Assembly: GCA_030141605.1 (NCBI GenBank) | Contig: JAQGDQ010002378.1 | Location: 280,514 to 344,513, forward strand | Source: Tubiluchus corallicola | Lineage: Eukaryota > Animalia > Priapulida | Length of the DNA: 64,000 nt | Direction: 5' to 3' | Shown: in pieces, positions 21,041 through 64,000 of the stretch | Layout of the letters: every line of letters starts with the position of its first letter | Position numbering within the stretch: the first letter of the stretch is position 1 | Made by a program: the position numbers and the translations under genes | The notes under the pieces: model-generated | What the model saw: the letters and a program-made list of their open reading frames with translations, nothing else | Told to the model about the DNA's origin: nothing | The model's database searches: none

Positions 21041-23098
21041 ATCTTTGGGGGATACCAACCAGTAGATGAATTTCTCGTGGATTGCCACAAAGAATCTCTG
21101 GGTCACCTAGGATCATGCCCTTTAAGTCTCCTAACCAATCACCCTCAGAACATGCCGGAAAGGGTCTCACTAGTTTATCTTGGGTGGTGGCATTAAAGGT
21201 CACAATTTTTCCTGTATTTGTTCGAAGTTTAGCACGAACAATGTGGCATTTCTGTTGCGGTGTGCTAAGTCCACCCATAATAGCTAACGAAAGATTACGC
21301 TCGCCTATAATTTCGCAACCTGCTCGCTCTGCAACATCACACAAAATAAGAGAGGTAGTGGCACCAGGATTTATAAAAACACGAATAGGAATTGACGATT
21401 TGGTATCTTCCAAAACAGCAGTCGCAGTCATTAAGAACACAACATTCGTACAAAAAGACTGTAAATGAACTGATGGAACATCAACACTTGCATCAGAAGT
21501 ATTTGAACCTCTTTTAACATAAGGACTCACCTGGAAGCAGCCAGCAATTGAATTGCACAATAAATAATGATGCCATTTACTACATCGGTTGCATGGAGGT
21601 TTACGGCAAGTATCAGCTCTGTGGTTTAAACCAAGACACAAAAAACAACGGTGCTGCTCAGCAACCTTCTGTTTTCGCTCTTGCAAAGTCTTAGTAGGAA
21701 GAGACGCACAATCAAGCCACATATGTTGAGCTCTGCCACAAAATAAACAATGGGAATTCTTTGAAGCTGTAGGCGCATTTTTGGTGTTTCCACAAAAATC
21801 ACTAGACTGAAGAAGAGAAACTGAATCTAGGGTGCTCCTCACACCTAAATTCTTATACCCAGCACGACGACTAAATTCACCAGACTCTCTATGGCGAGTA
21901 TATGAAGCAGCCTTTCGTCTAATATCAACTTCGCTTTTCATGAACTGTCGAAATTTTTCAAAGCATGTTGTGTCATCTTCACGCTGTCATCTTCACGCCT
22001 TCTCATTCACTCCCATTCAACACGCCAAGCATATGGAATTTTTGCTAGAAAGAGAGGTTTTAGGGTTTTACCTAATTCTTCTGTACTAAGTCCCATTGCA
22101 CTGAGGCCTCTTATAACAACTTCAAGCTCATCTACAAAACTTCCTTGTGCTTCAATATTTTTCGAATCGGTGATGGGCTTTAACTGCCACAGTTTTTTTA
22201 ACAATGACATCTCGATTGCGTCTTTATCACCAAATCTCTCCTTTAACAAAGAAACAGCTTCCTTATAATTGCCATCTACAGGCTGCAGGCCATCTATCAC
22301 ATGAGCAGCTTCACCTTTAAGTAAGCTCTTTAAGTAAACAAGTTTATGAACGTCTGGTACAGGTTTAGCATCCACAGAGGCAACGAACATGTCCCAAAAT
22401 TCGTAAAACTTCAATGGGTCACCACTGAAAGTTGGCAGTTGCAATTTAGGTAGTTTTATGTTGGTGACTTCTGCACCGACTACATTATTAGTTGGTAAAT
22501 TCGCTGCACTTTCACTACGTGCTAAATCACAGTTATTCACTCGTCGCAAGACAAAATCATTATCACTTGCATGTCGCTGGAAATCACTAGGACTACATGG
22601 TCTTGAATCTGGTTTTAGCAAACTTAGTGCCTGAGCAGAAATTAATTCCGCTGTGTTGATTAATTCACTTGCCTCTATAATCGCTTGTTCAAGTTCTTCA
22701 CCTTCTAAATAATCTTCTAACTACACTTCTGTTTCATTAAAGGTGGCAATATATTTTCCAAGGTTCTCTAATTTTTGCTGAACAAACACAAAGTTAGGCG
22801 TTTCACTAGACATCGCCTCTTTTAGTAATTTTATGCCAGTCTTCACCCAACCCTTGGATCTACTTCTAGAGTGTTTAATTTTATCACACTCAGCCATACT
22901 CATCTAAAGGTCTCTTTTCCCGGCAGTTCCGTACCAAAATATAAATACAATCACGGATAAGTTCCAATTATTTAATACAAAAAGATTTATTTAAAACTGT
23001 AAATTGTTTATCACGCATAAAATCGAATTTTGCCACTGGAACAAAAATGGCGCACACATGTGGAACAAAAAAACACAATATGCAAAATCTTCGTGACA
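21041..23098 (-). mobile_element. Truncated BEL/Pao LTR retrotransposon (LTR, PBS-like site, gag, protease) within the 5S spacer
   Basis: LTR-like TGTCACG start at 23098; TGGTACGGAAC PBS-like site ~22936; gag KLPKLQLPTFSGDP..FWDMF..KLVYLKSLLKGEA..NYKEAVSLLKERFG (DUF1759-type); three CCHC knuckles; protease-like VFINPGATTSLI. In-frame stop at 22721, frameshift near 22000, no RT or integrase. Confidence 0.9.
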
Positions 23099-30567: not shown

Positions 30568-33500
30568 TCACGACTCTTCTCCACATTTACATATTACGGA
30601 TGTATCAACATTTTCCTTATCATCACACATGTATTTGAATGGATGAAAGACTGTTCCCTCCGGGCAGTTCATTGGAACACGCATTTCATTGGGTGTGTTC
30701 TGCCACAGACATAGATAGTACTTGCGACAGTTTATTGGATTTGCCATTACCATGTGCGAATGTCCGGAGCAAGAGGGACCTGGTCCTTTCACCTCACATT
30801 GCGTACTTTCTGTAGCCATTCCCACAGCGCCGTTTCTTCCAGAAGCAGATGAACCGGAATCCGAAAGTTTTGTTTCCTCCAATTCTGGATTATATGGCCT
30901 CTGCTCTTCCTGGGCAACTACTGGGCCAAGGCTTTCGCCCCCATGAGTATTACTGGGATATGTCTCGTGTCCAACAGTACCAGGTAATTCATAATCGTTG
31001 TAAGTATTACGTGGATATTGTTCATAGGATTGATTTGTAGGATACCCTTCATAAGAATAAGCTGTATGGTGTGGAAATGGAATACCAACTGTGGAAACAT
31101 GTGATGGATACGTATCATAGTGGCCTGGATAGCTTTCATATGCATCGTGTCCATGTTCAGGGTATGTTTCATGAGGATGCACTTCATAGTGTCCATGTTC
31201 AGGGTACGTTTCATGAGGATGCACTTCATAGTGTCCATGTTCAGGGTACGTTTCATGAGGATGCACTTCATAGTGTCCATGTTCAGGGTACGTTTCATGA
31301 GGATGCACTTCATAGTGTCCATGTTCAGGGTACGTTTCATGAGGATGCACTTCATAGTGTCCATATTCAGGGTACGTTTCATGAGGATGCACTTCATAGT
31401 GTCCATATTCAGGATACGTTTCATGAGGATGCACTTCATAGTGTCCATGTTCAGGGTACGTTTCATGAGGATGCACTTCATAGTGTCCATGTTCAGGATA
31501 CGTTTCATGAGGATGCACTTCATAGTGTCCATGTTCAGGATACTCTTCATGAGGATGCACTTCATAGTGTCCATGTTCAGGATACGTTTCATGAGGATGC
31601 ACTTCATAGTGTCCATGTTCAGGATACTCTTCATGAGGATATAATTCATTAGGATGAACTTCATAGTGTCCATGTTCAGGGTACGTTTCATGAGGATGCA
31701 CTTCATAGTGTCCATGTTCAGGGTATGTTTCATGAGGATGCACTTCATAGTGTCCATGTTCAGGGTATGTTTCATGAGGAAGCACTTCATAATGTCCATG
31801 TTCAGGGTATGTTTCATGAGGATGCACTTCATAGTGTCCATGTTCAGGGTATGTTTCATGAGGAAGCACTTCATAATGTCCATGTTCAGGGTATGTTTCA
31901 TGAGGATGCACTTCATAATGTCCATGTTCAGGGTATGTTTCATGAGGATGCACTTCATAATGTCCATGTTCAGGGTATGTTTCACGAGGATGCACTTCAT
32001 AATGTCCATGTTCAGGGTATGTTTCACGAGGATGCACTTCATAGTGTCCATGTTCAGGGTATGTTTCATGAGGATGCACTTCATAGTGTCCATGTTCAGG
32101 GTATGTTTCATGAGGAAGCACTTCATAGTGTCCATGTTCAGGGTACGCTTCATGAGGATGCACTTCATAGTGTCCATGTTCAGGGTATGTTTCATGAGGA
32201 AGCACTTCATAATGTCCATGTTCAGGGTATGTTTCATGAGGATGCACTTCATAATGTCCATGTTCAGGGTATGTTTCATGAGGATGCACTTCATAATGTC
32301 CATGTTCAGGGTATGTTTCACGAGGATGCACTTCATAATGTCCATGTTCAGGGTATGTTTCACGAGGATGCACTTCATAGTGTCCATGTTCAGGGTATGT
32401 TTCATGAGGATGCACTTCATAGTGTCCATGTTCAGGGTATGTTTCATGAGGAAGCACTTCATAGTGTCCATGTTCAGGGTATGTTTCATGAGGAAGCACT
32501 TCATAATGTCCATGTTCAGGGTATGTTTCACGAGGATGCACTTCATAATGTCCATGTTCAGGGTATGTTTCATGAGGATGCACTTCATAGTGTCCATGTT
32601 CAGGGTATGTTTCACGAGGATGCACTTCATAATGTCCATGTTCAGGGTATGTTTCATGAGGATGCACTTCATAATGTCCATGTTCAGGGTATGTTTCACG
32701 AGGATGCACTTCATAATGTCCATGTTCAGGGTATGTTTCACGAGGATGCACTTCATAATGTCCATGTTCAGGGTATGTTTCACGAGGATGCCCTTCATAA
32801 TGTCCATGTTCAGGATATGTTTCACGAGGATGCCCTTCATAATGTCCATGTTCAGGGTATGTTTCACGAGGATGCCCTTCATAATGTCCATGTTCAGCAT
32901 ACAGTTCATCAGGGTGTGTTTCATAACCATAACTTTCATAAGGATGAACTTCATAGAGTTCAGACCCAGGGTAAGTATCGTAATAATTGCTTTTTTCATA
33001 AGGGTACGCATGCGGCTCGTTTACTGGATATATTTCAGAACTTTCACGAGGATGTACTTCGAAATCATCATACTGTCCATGTGCTGAATATGCACCGTAA
33101 TTCTCATGTGTTTGATGAGGGTGCACGTCATACTGCTCCGGCAGATATATTACATAATTGTGAGCGTCATAAGGATAGCTGTTGCTAGGGTAGACTTCAT
33201 ATGCATCTCTGTGTGGATATGTTTCGTAATTGTACGTTTCGTGGGGAATCATTTCGTGTTCTTGATATGGTATGTAACTTCCTTGTGTTTGATGAGGATA
33301 CGCATCGTGATAATTCCCGTGCCGTGAATATGATGACTCCACTCTGCGACTGCGACTGTGCCCATGGTAGGCATGGTGCTCATCATATCCATGAACAGGG
33401 TGTTGTCCTTCTTGCTGATGGGATACATGTTGTACGTAGTGTCGCCGATGTTGCACAGTATGACGCCTGTACGTCTCACCGTGATGTGATGTTGCATAAT

Positions 33501-36500
33501 GTGGTTCTACTGCACCCGTTTCATACTTGTGCGGCAACTGCTGTAAAACATTTGAAGATTTTGTGTGGATTACATAGGTCACCTGTGTCACTTCCAGCAA
33601 TTCTGTTTTTATTGTGGTCAACAGAGGATTCCTTCCATGATTACAATGACCTTTAAAATCATCAAAACCTAATGCCCAGACCATAACGCCTCCAAGGTGA
33701 TTGTCGATCACATACTTGACCTACAAACAAAAACTAGTTAGACGAACCCTATTGTCAGTCAGGGAAAAATGAGGCCCGTTGATAACATGCAAATGCGTTG
33801 CAAAAATTACAAAAGTTGGTGATCAGTAACCAGTTGAATGCTAACTGTGGTCAACAATACGTACAAAAAAATTAGTGAAAGTTTGGTGATGGAAGTTCTA
33901 GAACTTGTCCAAATATACTGCAAAGGATTGTTACCTTTTCACTAATACTCCTTGAATCCTCGTAGCCAATCCATTGGTCATTTTTGTAAGCAAATGGAAC
34001 AAGCTGATCTTCAACCCAAAAGCTTTCATAGCTTGGCATCACTTCAGAACACACCTACAAAAGATTTAAGTAATGCAAGTCATTAAAATTAATAGAAATA
34101 AACCACAATTTTTATTTATTTGCAAATGTGACAAATGCCGCACATTGGTACCATTAAAATGTTTGTGAATTTTCCGAAACAGATTTGCGAATCTTTATAA
34201 TCTGCAAATTTTGTCGTAATTTATTCATTTATTATGAGTGAAGACGTAGATCTGTAAGTCATTCAAAAAATATTCGCAAGAAGCATTATCAGTTGTTCAG
34301 TTGGCTAAATCTATCACTTAAGCAGTAATAAGATTGGTGTTTACCAATCCACAAGAAGCCGAAAATCTTAATAAGAATAAGCTCAAGCAAAGTTTTGTGG
34401 GCACAAACCTCGTAGTACGGCATCATTCCTTCCTGTTGATACATGTGTCCAGCCTTGCCACTTCCTACAATAGGTGCATTTAACATGTGGTCAGATGGGT
34501 CTTGGAGAGTGTAAGTCTGTCCAAAAAGAGGAATTCCCAGCAGCAATTTCTTTGGATCCGTTCCATGGTTTATCCAATATTGGACGATGAATTCCTTAAA
34601 AAAAAGCAACGATAATAGGATTTAGGTTATCTAAGTACACTAAAAACTAAGGAACGCTATATGGCATGGAAGATTATTAAATTATCTAAGTACACTAAAA
34701 ACTAAGGAACGCTATATGGCATGGAAGATTATTAGATTGTCTAAGTACACTAAAAACTAAGGAACGTTATATGGCATGGAAGATTATTAGATTATCTAAA
34801 TACACTAAAAACTAAGGAACACTACATGGCATGGAAGATTATTAGATTATCTAAGTACACTAAAAACTAAGCAACACTACATGGCATGGAAGATTAATAG
34901 ATTATCTAAGTACACTAAAAACTAAGGAACACTACATGGCATGGAAGATTATTAGATTATCTAAGTACACTAAAAACTAAAGAACATTATATGGCATGGA
35001 AGATTATTAGATTATCTAAGTACGCTAAAAACTAAGGAACATTACATGGCATGGAAGATTATTAGATTATCTAAGTACACTAAAAACTAAGGAACATTAC
35101 ATGGCATGGAAGATTATTAGATTATCTAAGTACACTAAAAACTAAGGAACGCTATATGACATGAAAGATTACTAGGTTATTTAAGTACCCTAAAAACTAA
35201 GGAACACTACATGGCATGGAAGATTATTAGGTTATCTAAGTACACTAAAAACTAAGGAACATTATATGGCATGGAAGATTATTAGATTATCTAAGTACAC
35301 TAAAAACTAAGGAACACTACATGGCATGGAAGATTATTAGGTTATCCAAGTACACTAAAAACTAAGGAACACTACATGGCATGGAAGATTATTAGGTTAT
35401 CCAAGTACCCTAAAAACCAAGGAACACTATATGGCATGGAAGATTACTAGGTTATCTAAGGAAAACGATCATACCGCATCTTCATAGCTATTAGTCTCAA
35501 AAGTGCTTCCGTGATTTTCCAATAATTTATCCCTTTCACACACATGACACAAAAATGCTGCCCTTGCTTGTGTGTGATTTTCCAAGTTGTCTTACACTTA
35601 ACTGAAATTACTAAAAACAAAGATATTTCAAAGGCGACCTCTTCACTTACAATATTCGCAGTTTTGTCCACATCGTAGGAGTGAGGATGCAAAGGACTTC
35701 CATGACCAGCGTGTTTGTTCCATATTCCATTAAGGTGATAAGTCATCATTGGTAAATAATCACTAAACCTGCATTTAGAAATCAAGAATATTATGAGAAG
35801 CTTTTTCTCTTTGAGCACAAATAACCAGAGATGTTTTTTACACAAGGCGCTTTGCAAGGATTAATGGTAGTAGATGATAGATTTCAAGGACAATTTTGAG
35901 GTTAGTCACTTGACCTGCAGGGCGGTTATCTTCTACATAATAATTTATCATTCACTGATAATTCAACTTTTAAATAGCGTTATTAGTACCAATTATTTTC
36001 ATCAAAAATAAGAAACGTATTTATAAACGCACGAAGAGATTTTCGGGATGTCGTAACCCAAATCTATCCAGTATTTAGCGCCCGGTATCGTGGTGGCCAA
36101 GATTAGTTGATTGTTGCCGGAAAACTTGGCTTCCATCGTAAAGATCTTGTGAAGCTCCTAAAAATTAAACACACAATTGTACATAAATTTAAAATTGACA
36201 CAGAGATATTGGGTAAGAAGAGTCCTCACTTTGCATTAATTTGTTCAAGCCAAAACTACACCATATAGACACGAAGAACCGACGGTCAACTAGCAGAACT
36301 AACAACCTGCTTTAAAATGCTTGAAAAGATGAATTTCAAGAGCAAAGCAGTTAGAGTGTTATAGCCTGTCAAATACTACTAATATTTTTATATCAATACC
36401 TCTAAGAGCAGTGGTAAATTGTCTCTATCTGAAGGATGTCCACCTCTTCGTTCGTAGCCCGGAAACTCCCAGTCGACATTTAGTCCATCGAAACCATATT

Positions 36501-46526: not shown

Positions 46527-60629
<14,103 letters not shown>

Positions 60630-62045
60630 CTATAAAAAGAAAACAACTATTTGGAAATCACCGCGAGAATAACCATTATAATAACAAAAATTACTTTCCC
60701 CTGGTGTACCTGTTTTGGTTTATTTTTTACAAAAAAAAATCCAAAACAAACGGACAGTGATAGTTTGGTGTTCGAATCTCAAGAATTCTGTAACCTGGAT
60801 GTTTTGTACATATTATCCCAATCAACGTTAGGATTTTTAGAACTAAGCCTTATATTAAAAAGCTATAATCAAGTCACAAAAACAGGTCGATGGGTTTTAT
60901 TACAATTTCCTACTGTCACCTATAGTTGAAGGCCACAATTTGCGTCACATGCTTTAAACATTGCCAGTCTGTGACAAATGCAGTAAAAGAGATAATTTCA
61001 ATAATTATTGTCAAGTACTGGTTCTACCAGGTCGTGAAGGTCTTACAGGACTTTTGGACAACTTTAACTTTCCCAGGTATTTCGGCCTCAGTAGTATAGA
61101 TGTTTTGCCTCTGGCCGATTTCCCCACCCCCCCTTTGGCTGCCCGGGGGGGTGGGGAAAAACACCCCTAAAAAAGTGCGAAAATCCGCGAAAACCCCTAA
61201 AAAAGTGTGAAAACCCGTGTGAAAGTGCGCACGTGACCGAAATCGACGAAAAAGCGCGAAAAACAAAGAAAAACGAAGAAAAGGCGTGTGAAACGAGGTA
61301 AAAATTTTGCAGTTTTTCCCTCCCGCATGGCTTCATTTGGATCGAATGACCTTGAACTCTAGGTCACGTGACCAAAGTTCATTGACCCCTGGATGGCTTC
61401 TTTTTTTGACACCCCATTTTAAACCGCGCAAAACCGCGCGAAAGCATGTGAAAGTGTGTGAAAGCGCGTGAAAGTGTGTGAAAGTGCGCGAAAGCGTGTG
61501 AAAGTGTGTGAAACGAGGTAAAAAGCGCCTCAAACGAAGAAAAAGGGAGAAGTGGAGTTCCCGCCGAGGACTAATTAGTGCTAATTGGCGCTAATTGGCG
61601 AGCCCCTGCCACCCCTCCGCCGCGTGCAAACGTCCGTCCCGGGGGTCGGGGACACCCCCCCTGCAACCCACCCCTCCGTCACGTGGAATCGTCCATTGCA
61701 GGCAATGAGGGAAATCTTCCCCCCCCCCACTCGCGCAGTGCCGGCCCTTTTCCGCGACCACTTCTCTCTCTCGGGTGCCCTCCCTTTTCCGCGACCACTT
61801 CTCTCGCGGGTTTAGATGTGTGTGTGTGTGTGTGTGTGTGGAGATTTATTTCAAACGCCAAAGTTCGATAAATGCATTTTCACAAATCTTTTTTATTGAT
61901 GGATTACAAAAAATTTTTTTTACATTTTTTTATGCAAAATACATACGTGCTAAAACTAGATTATTATTATTATTATGGTGACGTGATAGTTCTACATTTT
62001 ACGTTTTTTTCGCAAATTACACAAATTATGCAAATTACAGTAAAA

Positions 62046-62646
62046 CTACACTAATGACGACGAGCGAGTACATGGATTGTCGTCGTCGTCGTCGATGTGA
62101 TACAGACAAACGTTATTGTTGTTAAAAACGAATTCGTTAAATTTGCGGAAAACGTGAGAGAAATCCTCGACCTTTGTCCCGCCCATCATTATTATGCTTC
62201 CGGTGTGAAAAATGTTCAGAGTAATTTGCTCGCATTTGCAAGTTAGTTTGGGAAATAGTTCCACTTCGTAAAACACTTCTCTAAAAGAATGCGTCGAAGG
62301 ACGAACGAGTTCTTCGTACAGTGCACCCAGTTTCAATCTGCAGCGAATTTTGGCTCTGGCGGTGATGGTGCGAATTGCGATCCCGTCGGCGGGCGTCAGT
62401 CCGAGACCTTTCGAGAGTTCTTCGATCGCATTGCGTAGTACTTTTTCCTCCGAAAAACCGTTGGCCACCACGGAGCCGGAGGCAAAAATCATCAGCGTCC
62501 CGCCCAGTCGCTTTAGCAGAAGCATTTGCGGTTTTCTTTCGTAGCGTCTTCCGCCCGTTCTCCGCCGGAGTTCGTTCAGATCGAAGCGCTGCGAGAACGA
62601 AGCCGTGGCGACGATGTTGACCGTTTGGACTGACACGTTAGAACAT
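62046..62646 (-). CDS. Divergent TATA-box-binding-protein-like gene (intronless, element-borne)
   Basis: Two TBP repeats: VQTVNIVATASF..FDL...TLMIFASGSVVANG and IAIRTITARAKI...L..L...YEVELFPKL...ITLNIFHTGSIIMMG. The start codon is uncertain (see findings). Confidence 0.85.
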
Positions 62647-63088
62647 AGTTGGCAATCGTTTCGGACGCCCGAACCGCTCTGCCTCGTCCGTTGCTCTGCC
62701 AACGTATGGCGGGCGGCGGGTGGTCGCTTTCCAGATCCTCTACGCGTATGACCACGCGATTTTTGGGGAGATGTTTTTTGACGAAATCGTACATCTCTGC
62801 TCCCTTGACGTAGGTGATCCTGCCTCTGGTGGTCTGTCGTAGAATGTTTTCCAATTCTGCGTACTCGATCATTCCCTCCTCCCACGAGATGCCGTGTATG
62901 TGTCTGATTAGGTAGTTGTAGGTGGATCGCTTGTGCTGGGGAACACGATTCCAGGGGTGGGGCGGTTTGAAGGTGTAGTTGTGATATATGCCGGTCTCTA
63001 TTTCGCGAATTACCAAATTTTTGACCAGGTATTCTTCTTTTCCGCACTGGAAGGCATCTACGGTGAGAACTATGCTCGATTCAGACAT
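62576..63088 (-). CDS. Uncharacterised element ORF, putative DnaQ/DEDD-exonuclease-like fold
   Basis: Pattern VDAF..YLVKNL...HNYTFKPP..W......YL...HGISW..G..EY..L..IL...YVKG.E, recalled from Maverick-associated ORFs in invertebrate genomes; not database-checked. Confidence 0.6.
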   Translation of the reverse strand: MSESSIVLTVDAFQCGKEEYLVKNLVIREIETGIYHNYTFKPPHPWNRVPQHKRSTYNYLIRHIHGISWEEGMIEYAELENILRQTTRGRITYVKGAEMYDFVKKHLPKNRVVIRVEDLESDHPPPAIRWQSNGRGRAVRASETIANYVLTCQSKRSTSSPRLRSRSASI

Positions 63089-63377
63089 CTGTGACGATGG
63101 GGGGTCCTTCTACGCCGTCGGCAACGAGTTTTCCTTCGATGACGATTTGCTTGTGATTGTTCACAAATTCCAGAGACTTGATTTTTTCGAAGGTGTATTT
63201 TTTTATGACCTTGTTGGGGGCACTCTTGCGTGCGTTGGCGCGCTTGCCGCCCCGCGTCCCCGCTTGTTGTTGTTGCTTGCGAGGAACTGGACAAACTGGA
63301 CGGAAAGAAGTCTGCCAGACACGGACGTCGGCACCTCCGCCCCTCCGTGTAAAAGCAGACGCGAGAGAGGGACACGA

Positions 63378-63545
63378 ATGGACATCTTTCGAGAGGAGGA
63401 GGAGGAAGAGGAGAAAGATGATGATAAAGAAGAAGACAAACTCGTAATTTCCGCGACGCCCCCTCCATCGCCGCCGATGGTGCTCACCCCCACTGCCCCC
63501 AAAAAACCTAGAAATCTGAAAGAATGGCTCATCAAAAATGCCTAG
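63378..63545 (+). CDS. Small acidic/Pro-rich ORF, 55 aa
   Basis: MDIFREEEEEEEKDDDKEEDKLVISATPPPSPPMVLTPTAPKKPRNLKEWLIKNA* in the spacer between the arms. Confidence 0.45.
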   Translation: MDIFREEEEEEEKDDDKEEDKLVISATPPPSPPMVLTPTAPKKPRNLKEWLIKNA

Positions 63546-63596
63546 TTGTCGTTAGCGAACAACAATACTATAACTATTGTTCTTCTTCTCTTGCAG

Positions 63597-63827
63597 GATT
63601 TCAAACAACCTCTAACCACCGTTCCTCGCAAGCAACAACAACAAGCGGGGACGCGGGGCGGCAAGCGCGCCAACGCACGCAAGAGTGCCCCCAACAAGGT
63701 CATAAAAAAATACACCTTCGAAAAAATCAAGTCTCTGGAATTTGTGAACAATCACAAGCAAATCGTCATCGAAGGAAAACTCGTTGCCGACGGCGTAGAA
63801 GGACCCCCCATCGTCACAGATGTCTGA
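63597..63827 (+). CDS. Small basic ORF or terminal exon in the element
   Basis: Strong acceptor ttcttcttctcttgcag at 63596, then DFKQPLTTVPRKQQQQAGTRGGKRANARKSAPNK...GPPIVTDV*. Its stop overlaps the next ATG (ATGTCTGA). Confidence 0.5.
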   Translation, partial: DFKQPLTTVPRKQQQQAGTRGGKRANARKSAPNKVIKKYTFEKIKSLEFVNNHKQIVIEGKLVADGVEGPPIVTDV

Positions 63828-64000
63828 ATCGAGCATAGTTCTCACCGTAGATGCCTTCCAGTGCGGAAAAGAAGAATACCTGGTCAAAAATTTGGTAATT
63901 CGCGAAATAGAGACCGGCATATATCACAACTACACCTTCAAACCGCCCCACCCCTGGAATCGCGTTCCCCAGCACAAGCGATCCACCTACAACTACCTAA
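63820..64000 (+). CDS. Second (mirror) copy of the exonuclease-like ORF, partial
   Basis: MSESSIVLTVDAFQ..., identical in protein to 63088-62908; runs off the window. Confidence 0.7.
   Translation, partial: MSESSIVLTVDAFQCGKEEYLVKNLVIREIETGIYHNYTFKPPHPWNRVPQHKRSTYNYL

Follow-up and report, generated by a model that had tools for sequence, protein, structure and literature searches.

A TATA-binding-protein gene with altered DNA-contact residues on a high-copy, probably Polinton-derived element in the priapulid Tubiluchus corallicola

Can a small mobile element of an animal carry its own basal transcription factor, and what would it do with one? The question is raised by a stretch of 64,000 nucleotides from Tubiluchus corallicola (GenBank assembly GCA_030141605.1, contig JAQGDQ010002378.1, positions 280,514 to 344,513 of the forward strand; hereafter the window), the last 2.9 kb of which belong to an element that encodes a homolog of the TATA-binding protein (TBP). 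An original prediction, made from the letters alone, took this element for a Polinton/Maverick-like endogenous virus. We give about half of our confidence to a modified reading, in which the window would end with the left half of a non-autonomous, folded-back form of what is probably a Polinton/Maverick, and in which the TBP, with its altered DNA-binding face, would serve the parent element as a promoter-selective initiation factor.

Edge and copy number of the element

We aligned public contigs from four runs (X1 to X4) of two samples to positions 59500-64000; the four runs contain 66-70% of the sampled words, and the contig table shows 32 of 7707 pieces. The edge of the element can be observed directly in them. 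An X1 contig of the flank (depth 162) matches the window up to exactly 61089 and leaves 44 letters over. One X3 contig crosses 61089/61090 with 0 differences and reaches 28 letters into the element, and a second X3 contig carries 208 other letters and then matches from 61090 onward. These breakpoints fix the edge at 61090, and the 208 foreign letters show that a second insertion site exists. Composition changes at the same point, with a GC fraction of 0.35 on the left and 0.49 on the right, and an observed/expected CpG ratio of 0.80 on the left and 1.25 on the right. The sharp compositional boundary that had been predicted at this AGTAGT is therefore borne out by composition and contigs alike.

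The first six bases of the element (61090..61095, plus strand) are AGTAGT, or (AGT)2. Polinton/Maverick ends are recognised by (AG)3 or (AGT)2 at the element edge, and the latter stands here; in the available part of PMC8097293, (AGT)2 is one of the two terminal motifs used to find Mavericks. Because AGTAGT is frequent by itself (26 sites in the window, both strands), we count it as evidence for its position at an edge defined by reads, and not for its mere occurrence. The six host bases to the left (61084..61089, plus strand) are a candidate target-site duplication, the other copy of which would lie beyond the window.

In X2, depth is 536 on the contig with the TBP gene and 3.85 on the flank contig, and the contrast between element and flank exceeds 100-fold in X1, X2 and X3 (X4 is without flank cover). 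Contig depth is not equal to copy number; with this contrast, and with one contig that has another flank at 61090, the element is present in multiple integrated copies at different sites and is very high-copy. No further copy of the element or of its terminus was found within the window, and the sequence left of the edge is animal-like, with microsatellites, a chitin-binding gene and a DUF1759 retroelement fragment. At site 61089/61090, sample S1 shows a filled form (the X3 contig without differences) and a seemingly empty form (the X1 contig, with 2 differences and its 44 unmatched letters). If both forms hold, they hint that the insertion is recent and polymorphic.

The TATA-binding protein and its DNA face

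By sequence match and model, the minus-strand frame at 62046..62642 encodes a true TBP-fold protein of about 185-195 amino acids with two repeats. The Pfam family TBP (PF00352) matches it in two stretches with 77.8 bits (cut-off 22.9; E=5.8e-22), and a sequence search of the PDB gave 32 matches, all TBP-containing. An AlphaFold model reaches a pLDDT of 94.6 with a 21-row alignment and 33 when folded without one; compared by Foldseek with solved TBPs, the confident model is a saddle with TM scores of 0.70-0.81 and a probability of 1.00. The prediction of one reading frame with both TBP repeats has thus held, in profile and in fold. The core is net basic, with 26 Lys and Arg against 17 Asp and Glu.

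A search of the full library gave 117 proteins at E<=0.001, of which one (P0001) is 59-60% identical to the element TBP and the others 23-38%; identity to canonical rows was 23-25% in all five that were checked. In a quick tree of 116 rows, which excludes two long or tandem rows and whose group labels we assigned from sequence, the element TBP falls inside a group of 16 rows (support 89) with members of 145-204 residues, separate from the canonical eukaryotic group of 20 rows and from an archaeal-type group of 44. When 12 TBPs from IMG/VR contigs were added, support was 79 and one long giant-virus-type branch was drawn in; in a quick tree of 33 rows, the group had support 99. Forcing the element TBP and P0001 to join the canonical eukaryotic TBPs is rejected (p-AU 0.0035) in these 33 rows, a set without a named animal TBP, with long branches and with groups chosen after the first tree. 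Because identity to the canonical rows is so low and the forced placement is rejected, we do not regard the element TBP as a retrocopy of the host gene. The nesting among host TBP retrocopies that would have spoken against the original prediction is not seen. It is also plausible that the protein is not TRF2, as judged by its F116, F190 and F207 and by the Atlas, in which the TBPL1 cluster ranks 25 of 30; no recognisable TRF2 occurs among the 117 matches, and the trees contain no named one.

Further searches added little. Related-locus searches of viral and metagenome sets with the element TBP found no relative, nor did those with a 5-row TBP alignment, with P0015 or with alignment A3. Alignments A4 and A5 gave 20 loci that are, by sequence, archaeal-type, canonical or giant-virus TBPs; the 12 of these that were put in the tree lie outside the group, except for the one long branch. 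A word-index search retained 1 of 271 candidates for the TBP and, at E<=1e-10, 18 of 1495 for alignment A1, none of them named, and only two of the 20 clusters looked up for TBP relatives have names, both generic TBP. The divergent TBPs of two IMG/VR contigs, each about 77 kb long (L012:10067-10600 and L013:9986-10504), pair together with support 90.

The protein neighbours bear on whether the carrier is a Polinton at all. The top Atlas clusters of the element TBP are 75% viral, and its nearest named structural neighbours in BFVD are nucleocytovirus TBPs. Together with the lack of any visible core gene, these neighbours would suit a different carrier that captured a viral TBP, such as a cut-and-paste or foldback transposon of another kind or part of a larger DNA virus. 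We see only a slim chance of this, since the giant-virus TBP matches are 7-22% identical to the element TBP and no nearer than cellular ones, and since (AGT)2 at the exact edge, a MAEL-like gene by the terminus (see below) and the high copy number all speak for a Polinton.

What sets the element TBP apart is its DNA face. Compared with the contact list in Table 1 of PMC12529657, a source available in part, it retains N69, V71, F116, V122, F190, P191 and F207 and has substitutions at F99, L114, T124 (Asn), N159 (Thr), V161 (Thr), L205 (Asn) and T215 (Met). Its stirrup reads E-V-E, so that the acids of E-x-E are retained, and the landmarks listed in the original prediction are all as described there: N69, F116, F190, F207 and the stirrup acids kept, F99 and N159 lost. 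Of the four intercalating Phe and two central Asn that mark a canonical TBP, one of each is therefore replaced. Helix H2, which serves in contact with TFIIA and TAF1, is less basic than in canonical rows.

As read from the alignment, these residue changes are common to a group of short, unnamed TBPs. The position of N159 holds Thr or Ser in 12 of the 16 group rows and Asn in 20 of 20 canonical rows; that of L205 holds Asn in 11 of 16 and in none of the 20. A [KRQ]P-x-M-type motif, defined after the alignment was inspected, takes the place of P-x-R-F in 15 of 16 group rows and in 0 of 20 canonical rows, and 15 more proteins found by profile all have it, which is not independent of the definition. 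F190 and E188 are kept in all 16.

From these residues we can sketch how the protein might act. With F190, P191, F207 and the stirrup acids in place, its C-terminal half would remain able to kink a TATA-like box at the 5' end and to bind host TFIIB. The centre and 3' half of the box would be read differently, because F99 and N159 are gone and polar residues stand at the L205, T124 and V161 positions, and the less basic helix H2 would hold partners of the TFIIA/TAF1 type less tightly. In the parent element the TBP might be made early, recognise a non-canonical box and bring host Pol II to viral, probably late, promoters, much as KSHV ORF24 does for late genes. The main functional rival is a decoy that is impaired in DNA binding, titrates TFIIB or TBP partners and so dampens host transcription or antiviral genes, beside a MAEL-like gene that counters silencing. 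The lost Phe and Asn, the invariant E188 (16 of 16) and a position next to the MAEL-like gene, not to capsid genes, are in its favour. We consider it distinctly unlikely, because F116, F190, P191, F207 and N69 are kept on a net basic core, and because the substitutions are conserved in kind, as with the Asn at 205, which fits a new specificity better than decay.

Comparison with known proteins places the element TBP among several relatives of the fold. Cellular TBP (PF00352; PDB 1ytb, 1cdw and 3oc3) shares with it the two-repeat saddle (TM about 0.8), the acidic stirrup and the seven retained contacts given above. The element TBP differs in its 20-26% identity, in the absence of an N-terminal extension and of an in-frame AUG, in its less basic H2 and in its seven replaced contacts. 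The TBP mimic ORF24 of the herpesvirus KSHV also has a polar DNA face, in which T124 is replaced by Asn and L205 by a polar residue, and it reads a non-canonical late-promoter box. As described in the available part of PMC12529657, ORF24 retains the complete set of four Phe, has no TFIIB acids and works as a large multidomain member of a complex of six factors, whereas the element TBP is a bare core that has kept the acids and lost F99. The nucleocytovirus TBPs matched in BFVD, too, are viral proteins of the TBP fold whose DNA face is more polar. TLF has lost Phe residues; unlike TLF, the element TBP, which a mobile element carries, keeps three of the four and is about 25% identical to the TBP core. 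TLF (also TRF2 or TBPL1), according to the available part of PMC3142196, is a host gene for a divergent TBP-like protein with changed DNA contacts, about 40% identical to the TBP core.

Virus-encoded TBPs are not known to have been studied outside large viruses. A TBP of 190 residues with a conserved, rewired DNA face would be easy to express and to assay, would make Polinton promoter control testable and is possibly a natural altered-specificity TBP.

The start of the frame did not hold up as predicted. The AUG at 62646 that had been taken for it is out of the TBP frame (62046-62646 measures 601 nt), and in each of the four runs contigs have another base inside this AUG. The TBP frame is open from 63080 and has its first Met at 62525, inside repeat 1, so that no in-frame AUG precedes that repeat; P0001 was called from the equivalent internal Met. 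The natural start may lie at a GUG that is in frame at 62636, or involve a nearby AG that resembles a splice acceptor. The 5' end of the gene overlaps, in another frame, the last 22 codons of an upstream ORF of 170 amino acids. The absence of an AUG looks like a family trait and not like damage to this copy, because none of the 12 listed indel rows (of 74) falls within 62046-63287, and because two contigs about 15% diverged span the overlap with the upstream gene with 0 gaps. Translation would then proceed from a near-cognate start or by way of splicing or recoding.

The same facts could describe a dead or half-translated passenger, that is, a pseudogene or a gene translated from the internal Met onward only, as the start called for P0001 might suggest. 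We give this almost no credence: the part of repeat 1 upstream of that Met (the N69 strand and helix H1) is conserved and folds confidently, and the diverged contigs keep both frames free of gaps. In the interval 62650-62760, X2 has a second class of variants, at a depth of about 262, which spans the last part of the upstream ORF and adds nothing at 62535; some family members may thus be without this TBP or have a far more divergent one.

Probable fold-back layout and probable Polinton ancestry

A pair of inverted arms is observed directly in the window. The left arm (62908..63287, minus strand) is repeated inverted as the right arm (63621..64000, plus strand) with 379 of 380 positions identical, and a loop of 333 nt (63288..63620, plus strand) lies between them; the single difference is a synonymous C/T transition at a CpG. 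Contigs of X1, X2 and X4 diverge from the window sequence before 63279, and an X2 contig (depth 1026) is continuous across 63581-63998, through the start of the right arm at 63621. These contig paths indicate that in the common family form loop and right arm are read as a single strand, which extends upstream into sequence outside the window. Nine nucleotides at 63279..63287 (no strand assigned) are common to the left-arm end and the parent-type sequence, and we place the putative fold-back junction there, on the evidence of the loose contig ends and of the arm end at 63287.

The right arm, with a second copy of a small exon (gene end 63827) and the start of a MAEL-like ORF (63820), runs off the window end and is predicted to continue via a second TBP to a terminus near 65818, making a palindrome of 4,729 bp. 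This copy is then probably a fold-back derivative of about 4.7 kb and not a virus, and it is not autonomous, because the 333 nt between the arms are too short for core genes. An altered TBP on a Polinton-type element, with its (AGT)2 edge and MAEL-like gene, survives from the original prediction; the intact virus does not, given that the element folds back 2.2 kb from its end, and the tightly packed ORFs described there exist and are in part one gene block counted twice. Among the 15 titles listed, of 160 open-access matches, none was on fold-back Polintons.

The neighbour of the TBP gene supports the ancestry. The ORF of 170 amino acids (62576..63088, minus strand) is likely an adintovirus/Polinton MAEL-like gene. 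In the Atlas it scores 0.94-0.96 with unnamed, mostly arthropod clusters, 0.86 with Maelstrom and 0.78 with a 3'-5' exoribonuclease cluster. Pfam, PHROG and NCBIfam profiles gave no match, a word-index search retained 0 of 52 candidates, a related-locus search was empty, and in the open-access literature we found no paper joining adintovirus and DEDD. In the figure text of Supplementary Figure S2 of PMC8502044, as far as available, the Alpha panel has four MAEL labels, one of them within the series Penton, Hexon, MAEL, MOSUB, ITR, and the available part of the Pannagram preprint (10.1101/2025.02.07.637071) describes mael-associated polintons in insects. The order of MAEL-like gene, one further gene and terminus seems to agree with the adintovirus map and is, as a lead, our second-best support for Polinton ancestry after the end motif. 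On the (AGT)2 edge, the MAEL-like neighbour and the high copy number, the element probably belongs to the Polintons/Mavericks.

In the layout that we favour, copying would have set out at one terminus. At the 9-nt inverted homology, 2.2-2.5 kb inside, the growing strand would have changed template, and synthesis would then have run back to the same terminus. The product would read terminus, TBP, MAEL-like gene, loop, MAEL-like gene, TBP, terminus over about 4.7 kb and would need polymerase and integrase in trans. If true, a fold-back with a 9-nt junction homology is a snapshot of failed strand-displacement replication, like the defective genomes of other linear DNA viruses.

Inverted arms around a short loop, together with microhomology, are a pattern that amplification chimeras leave as well. 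It could be that the element and its TBP are real and that the fold-back is an artefact of assembly or library (a chimeric long read or an amplification chimera); the true locus would then hold a Polinton that is longer, perhaps complete, and of which the window shows the right end. The junction is unbridged among the listed contigs and X2 shows the parent-type path only, as an artefact would have it. The one arm difference in 380, synonymous and at a CpG, is instead what decay in a genome would leave; X2 may be without the insertion and has thin flank cover (3.85), and a junction present in one copy can easily be missed by contigs and by a listing of 32 in 7707. We therefore rate an artefact as unlikely, while taking it seriously.

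Very unlikely, in our judgement, is an internal deletion, with no copy-back, of a parent whose terminal inverted repeats exceed 2.5 kb and hold TBP and MAEL-like gene at both ends. It predicts an identical window sequence and the same 9-nt junction. Polinton terminal inverted repeats, though, measure 100-1,500 bp (PMC10748475), and published maps, in the available part of PMC8502044, place MAEL once, near one ITR.

Several points weigh against the fold-back Polinton derivative with a working TBP. No Polinton core gene is seen in the 2.9 kb of element: we found neither pPolB, rve integrase, ATPase or protease nor major or minor capsid genes there, and no related locus. The MAEL call is a lead from the Atlas score of 0.86, for a protein with just two Cys. 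No contig among those listed bridges the junction with 31 letters on each side, and X2 depth is zero at 63124-63274. The TBP group takes its supports of 89, 79 and 99 from three quick trees with long branches and was named post hoc, and related-locus searches found genomic context for no member of its 16 rows. With no in-frame AUG before repeat 1, the full two-repeat protein may not be made. The absent core-gene link and a junction unconfirmed by reads limit the weight of the whole.

A bolder extension, which we put forward as tentative and rather doubtful, would have animal Polintons carry a distinct and widespread TBP family, reduced to the bare core, which retains the TFIIB dock and reads a non-TATA box and so gives these small viruses a late-gene switch of their own on host Pol II. 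Here the gene would be AUG-less and spread in duplicate by a copy-back satellite, which either supplies the factor in trans or interferes with its helper.

Polintons/Mavericks (adintoviruses, the Alpha class with MAEL), as described in the available parts of PMC8502044 and PMC8097293, resemble the element in the (AGT)2 end, high-copy integration and a MAEL-like gene near the terminus. Unlike them, this copy is palindromic, has no core genes and carries a TBP between MAEL-like gene and terminus; the Supplementary Figure S2 text of PMC8502044, where available, has no TBP label for adintoviruses. As judged by titles and the openings of abstracts, we found no paper on TBPs of animal Polintons in the open-access literature. 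The idea is nevertheless less novel than the original prediction supposed: a TBP label already appears, with no analysis, in the Figure 5 legend of PMC8502044 (preprint 10.1101/697771), on a MELD virus, a midsize eukaryotic dsDNA virus with an adintovirus-like PolB. In the part of the paper available, this TBP-like gene is a map label only, in a section on non-animal datasets.

Terminal region and other features

Between the edge and the TBP gene lies a non-coding terminal region (61148..61851, plus strand), probably part of a terminal inverted repeat. It holds 10-nt repeats (TGTGAAA at 8 places, 61206-61513), a 37-nt duplication and a GT microsatellite, and a subterminal hairpin with 15 G/C-rich pairs lies at 61119..61159 (plus strand; fold z=-3.6, with 0 of 200 shuffles as stable). 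The subterminal repeats that had been predicted are thus present as 10-nt and 37-nt arrays and accompanied by a hairpin. TGTGAAA is a conceivable, hypothetical binding site for the element TBP. The AT-rich 3' region of the TBP gene (61845..62045, minus strand) contains two AATAAA signals (61897 and 61850) that may be used for polyadenylation. A bacterial promoter scan gave matches at chance level and is irrelevant here.

Upstream of the MAEL-like ORF, 63378-63827 (plus strand) is probably a small spliced gene, judging by its sequence features. Its acidic, proline-rich first part begins in the loop at 63378, a strong splice-acceptor-like site stands before 63599, and the second exon is basic; the ORF from 63378 has no family match.

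Left of the element, another high-depth repeat (59500-59950) directly precedes the microsatellite block, and the contigs there have many joints and variants. Retroelement gag-like fragments at 21042-22720 (minus strand; DUF1759, E=4e-26) are presumably of the BEL/Pao type. Finally, an open frame of 3.1 kb at 30571-33720 (minus strand) encodes about 65 tandem His/Glu/Tyr/Pro-rich units of about 16 residues and a C-terminal CBM14 domain (Pfam E=9e-9). Its start carries a motif that we take to resemble the end of a GH18 chitinase, and its His-rich linker could bind metal or stiffen a chitin matrix.

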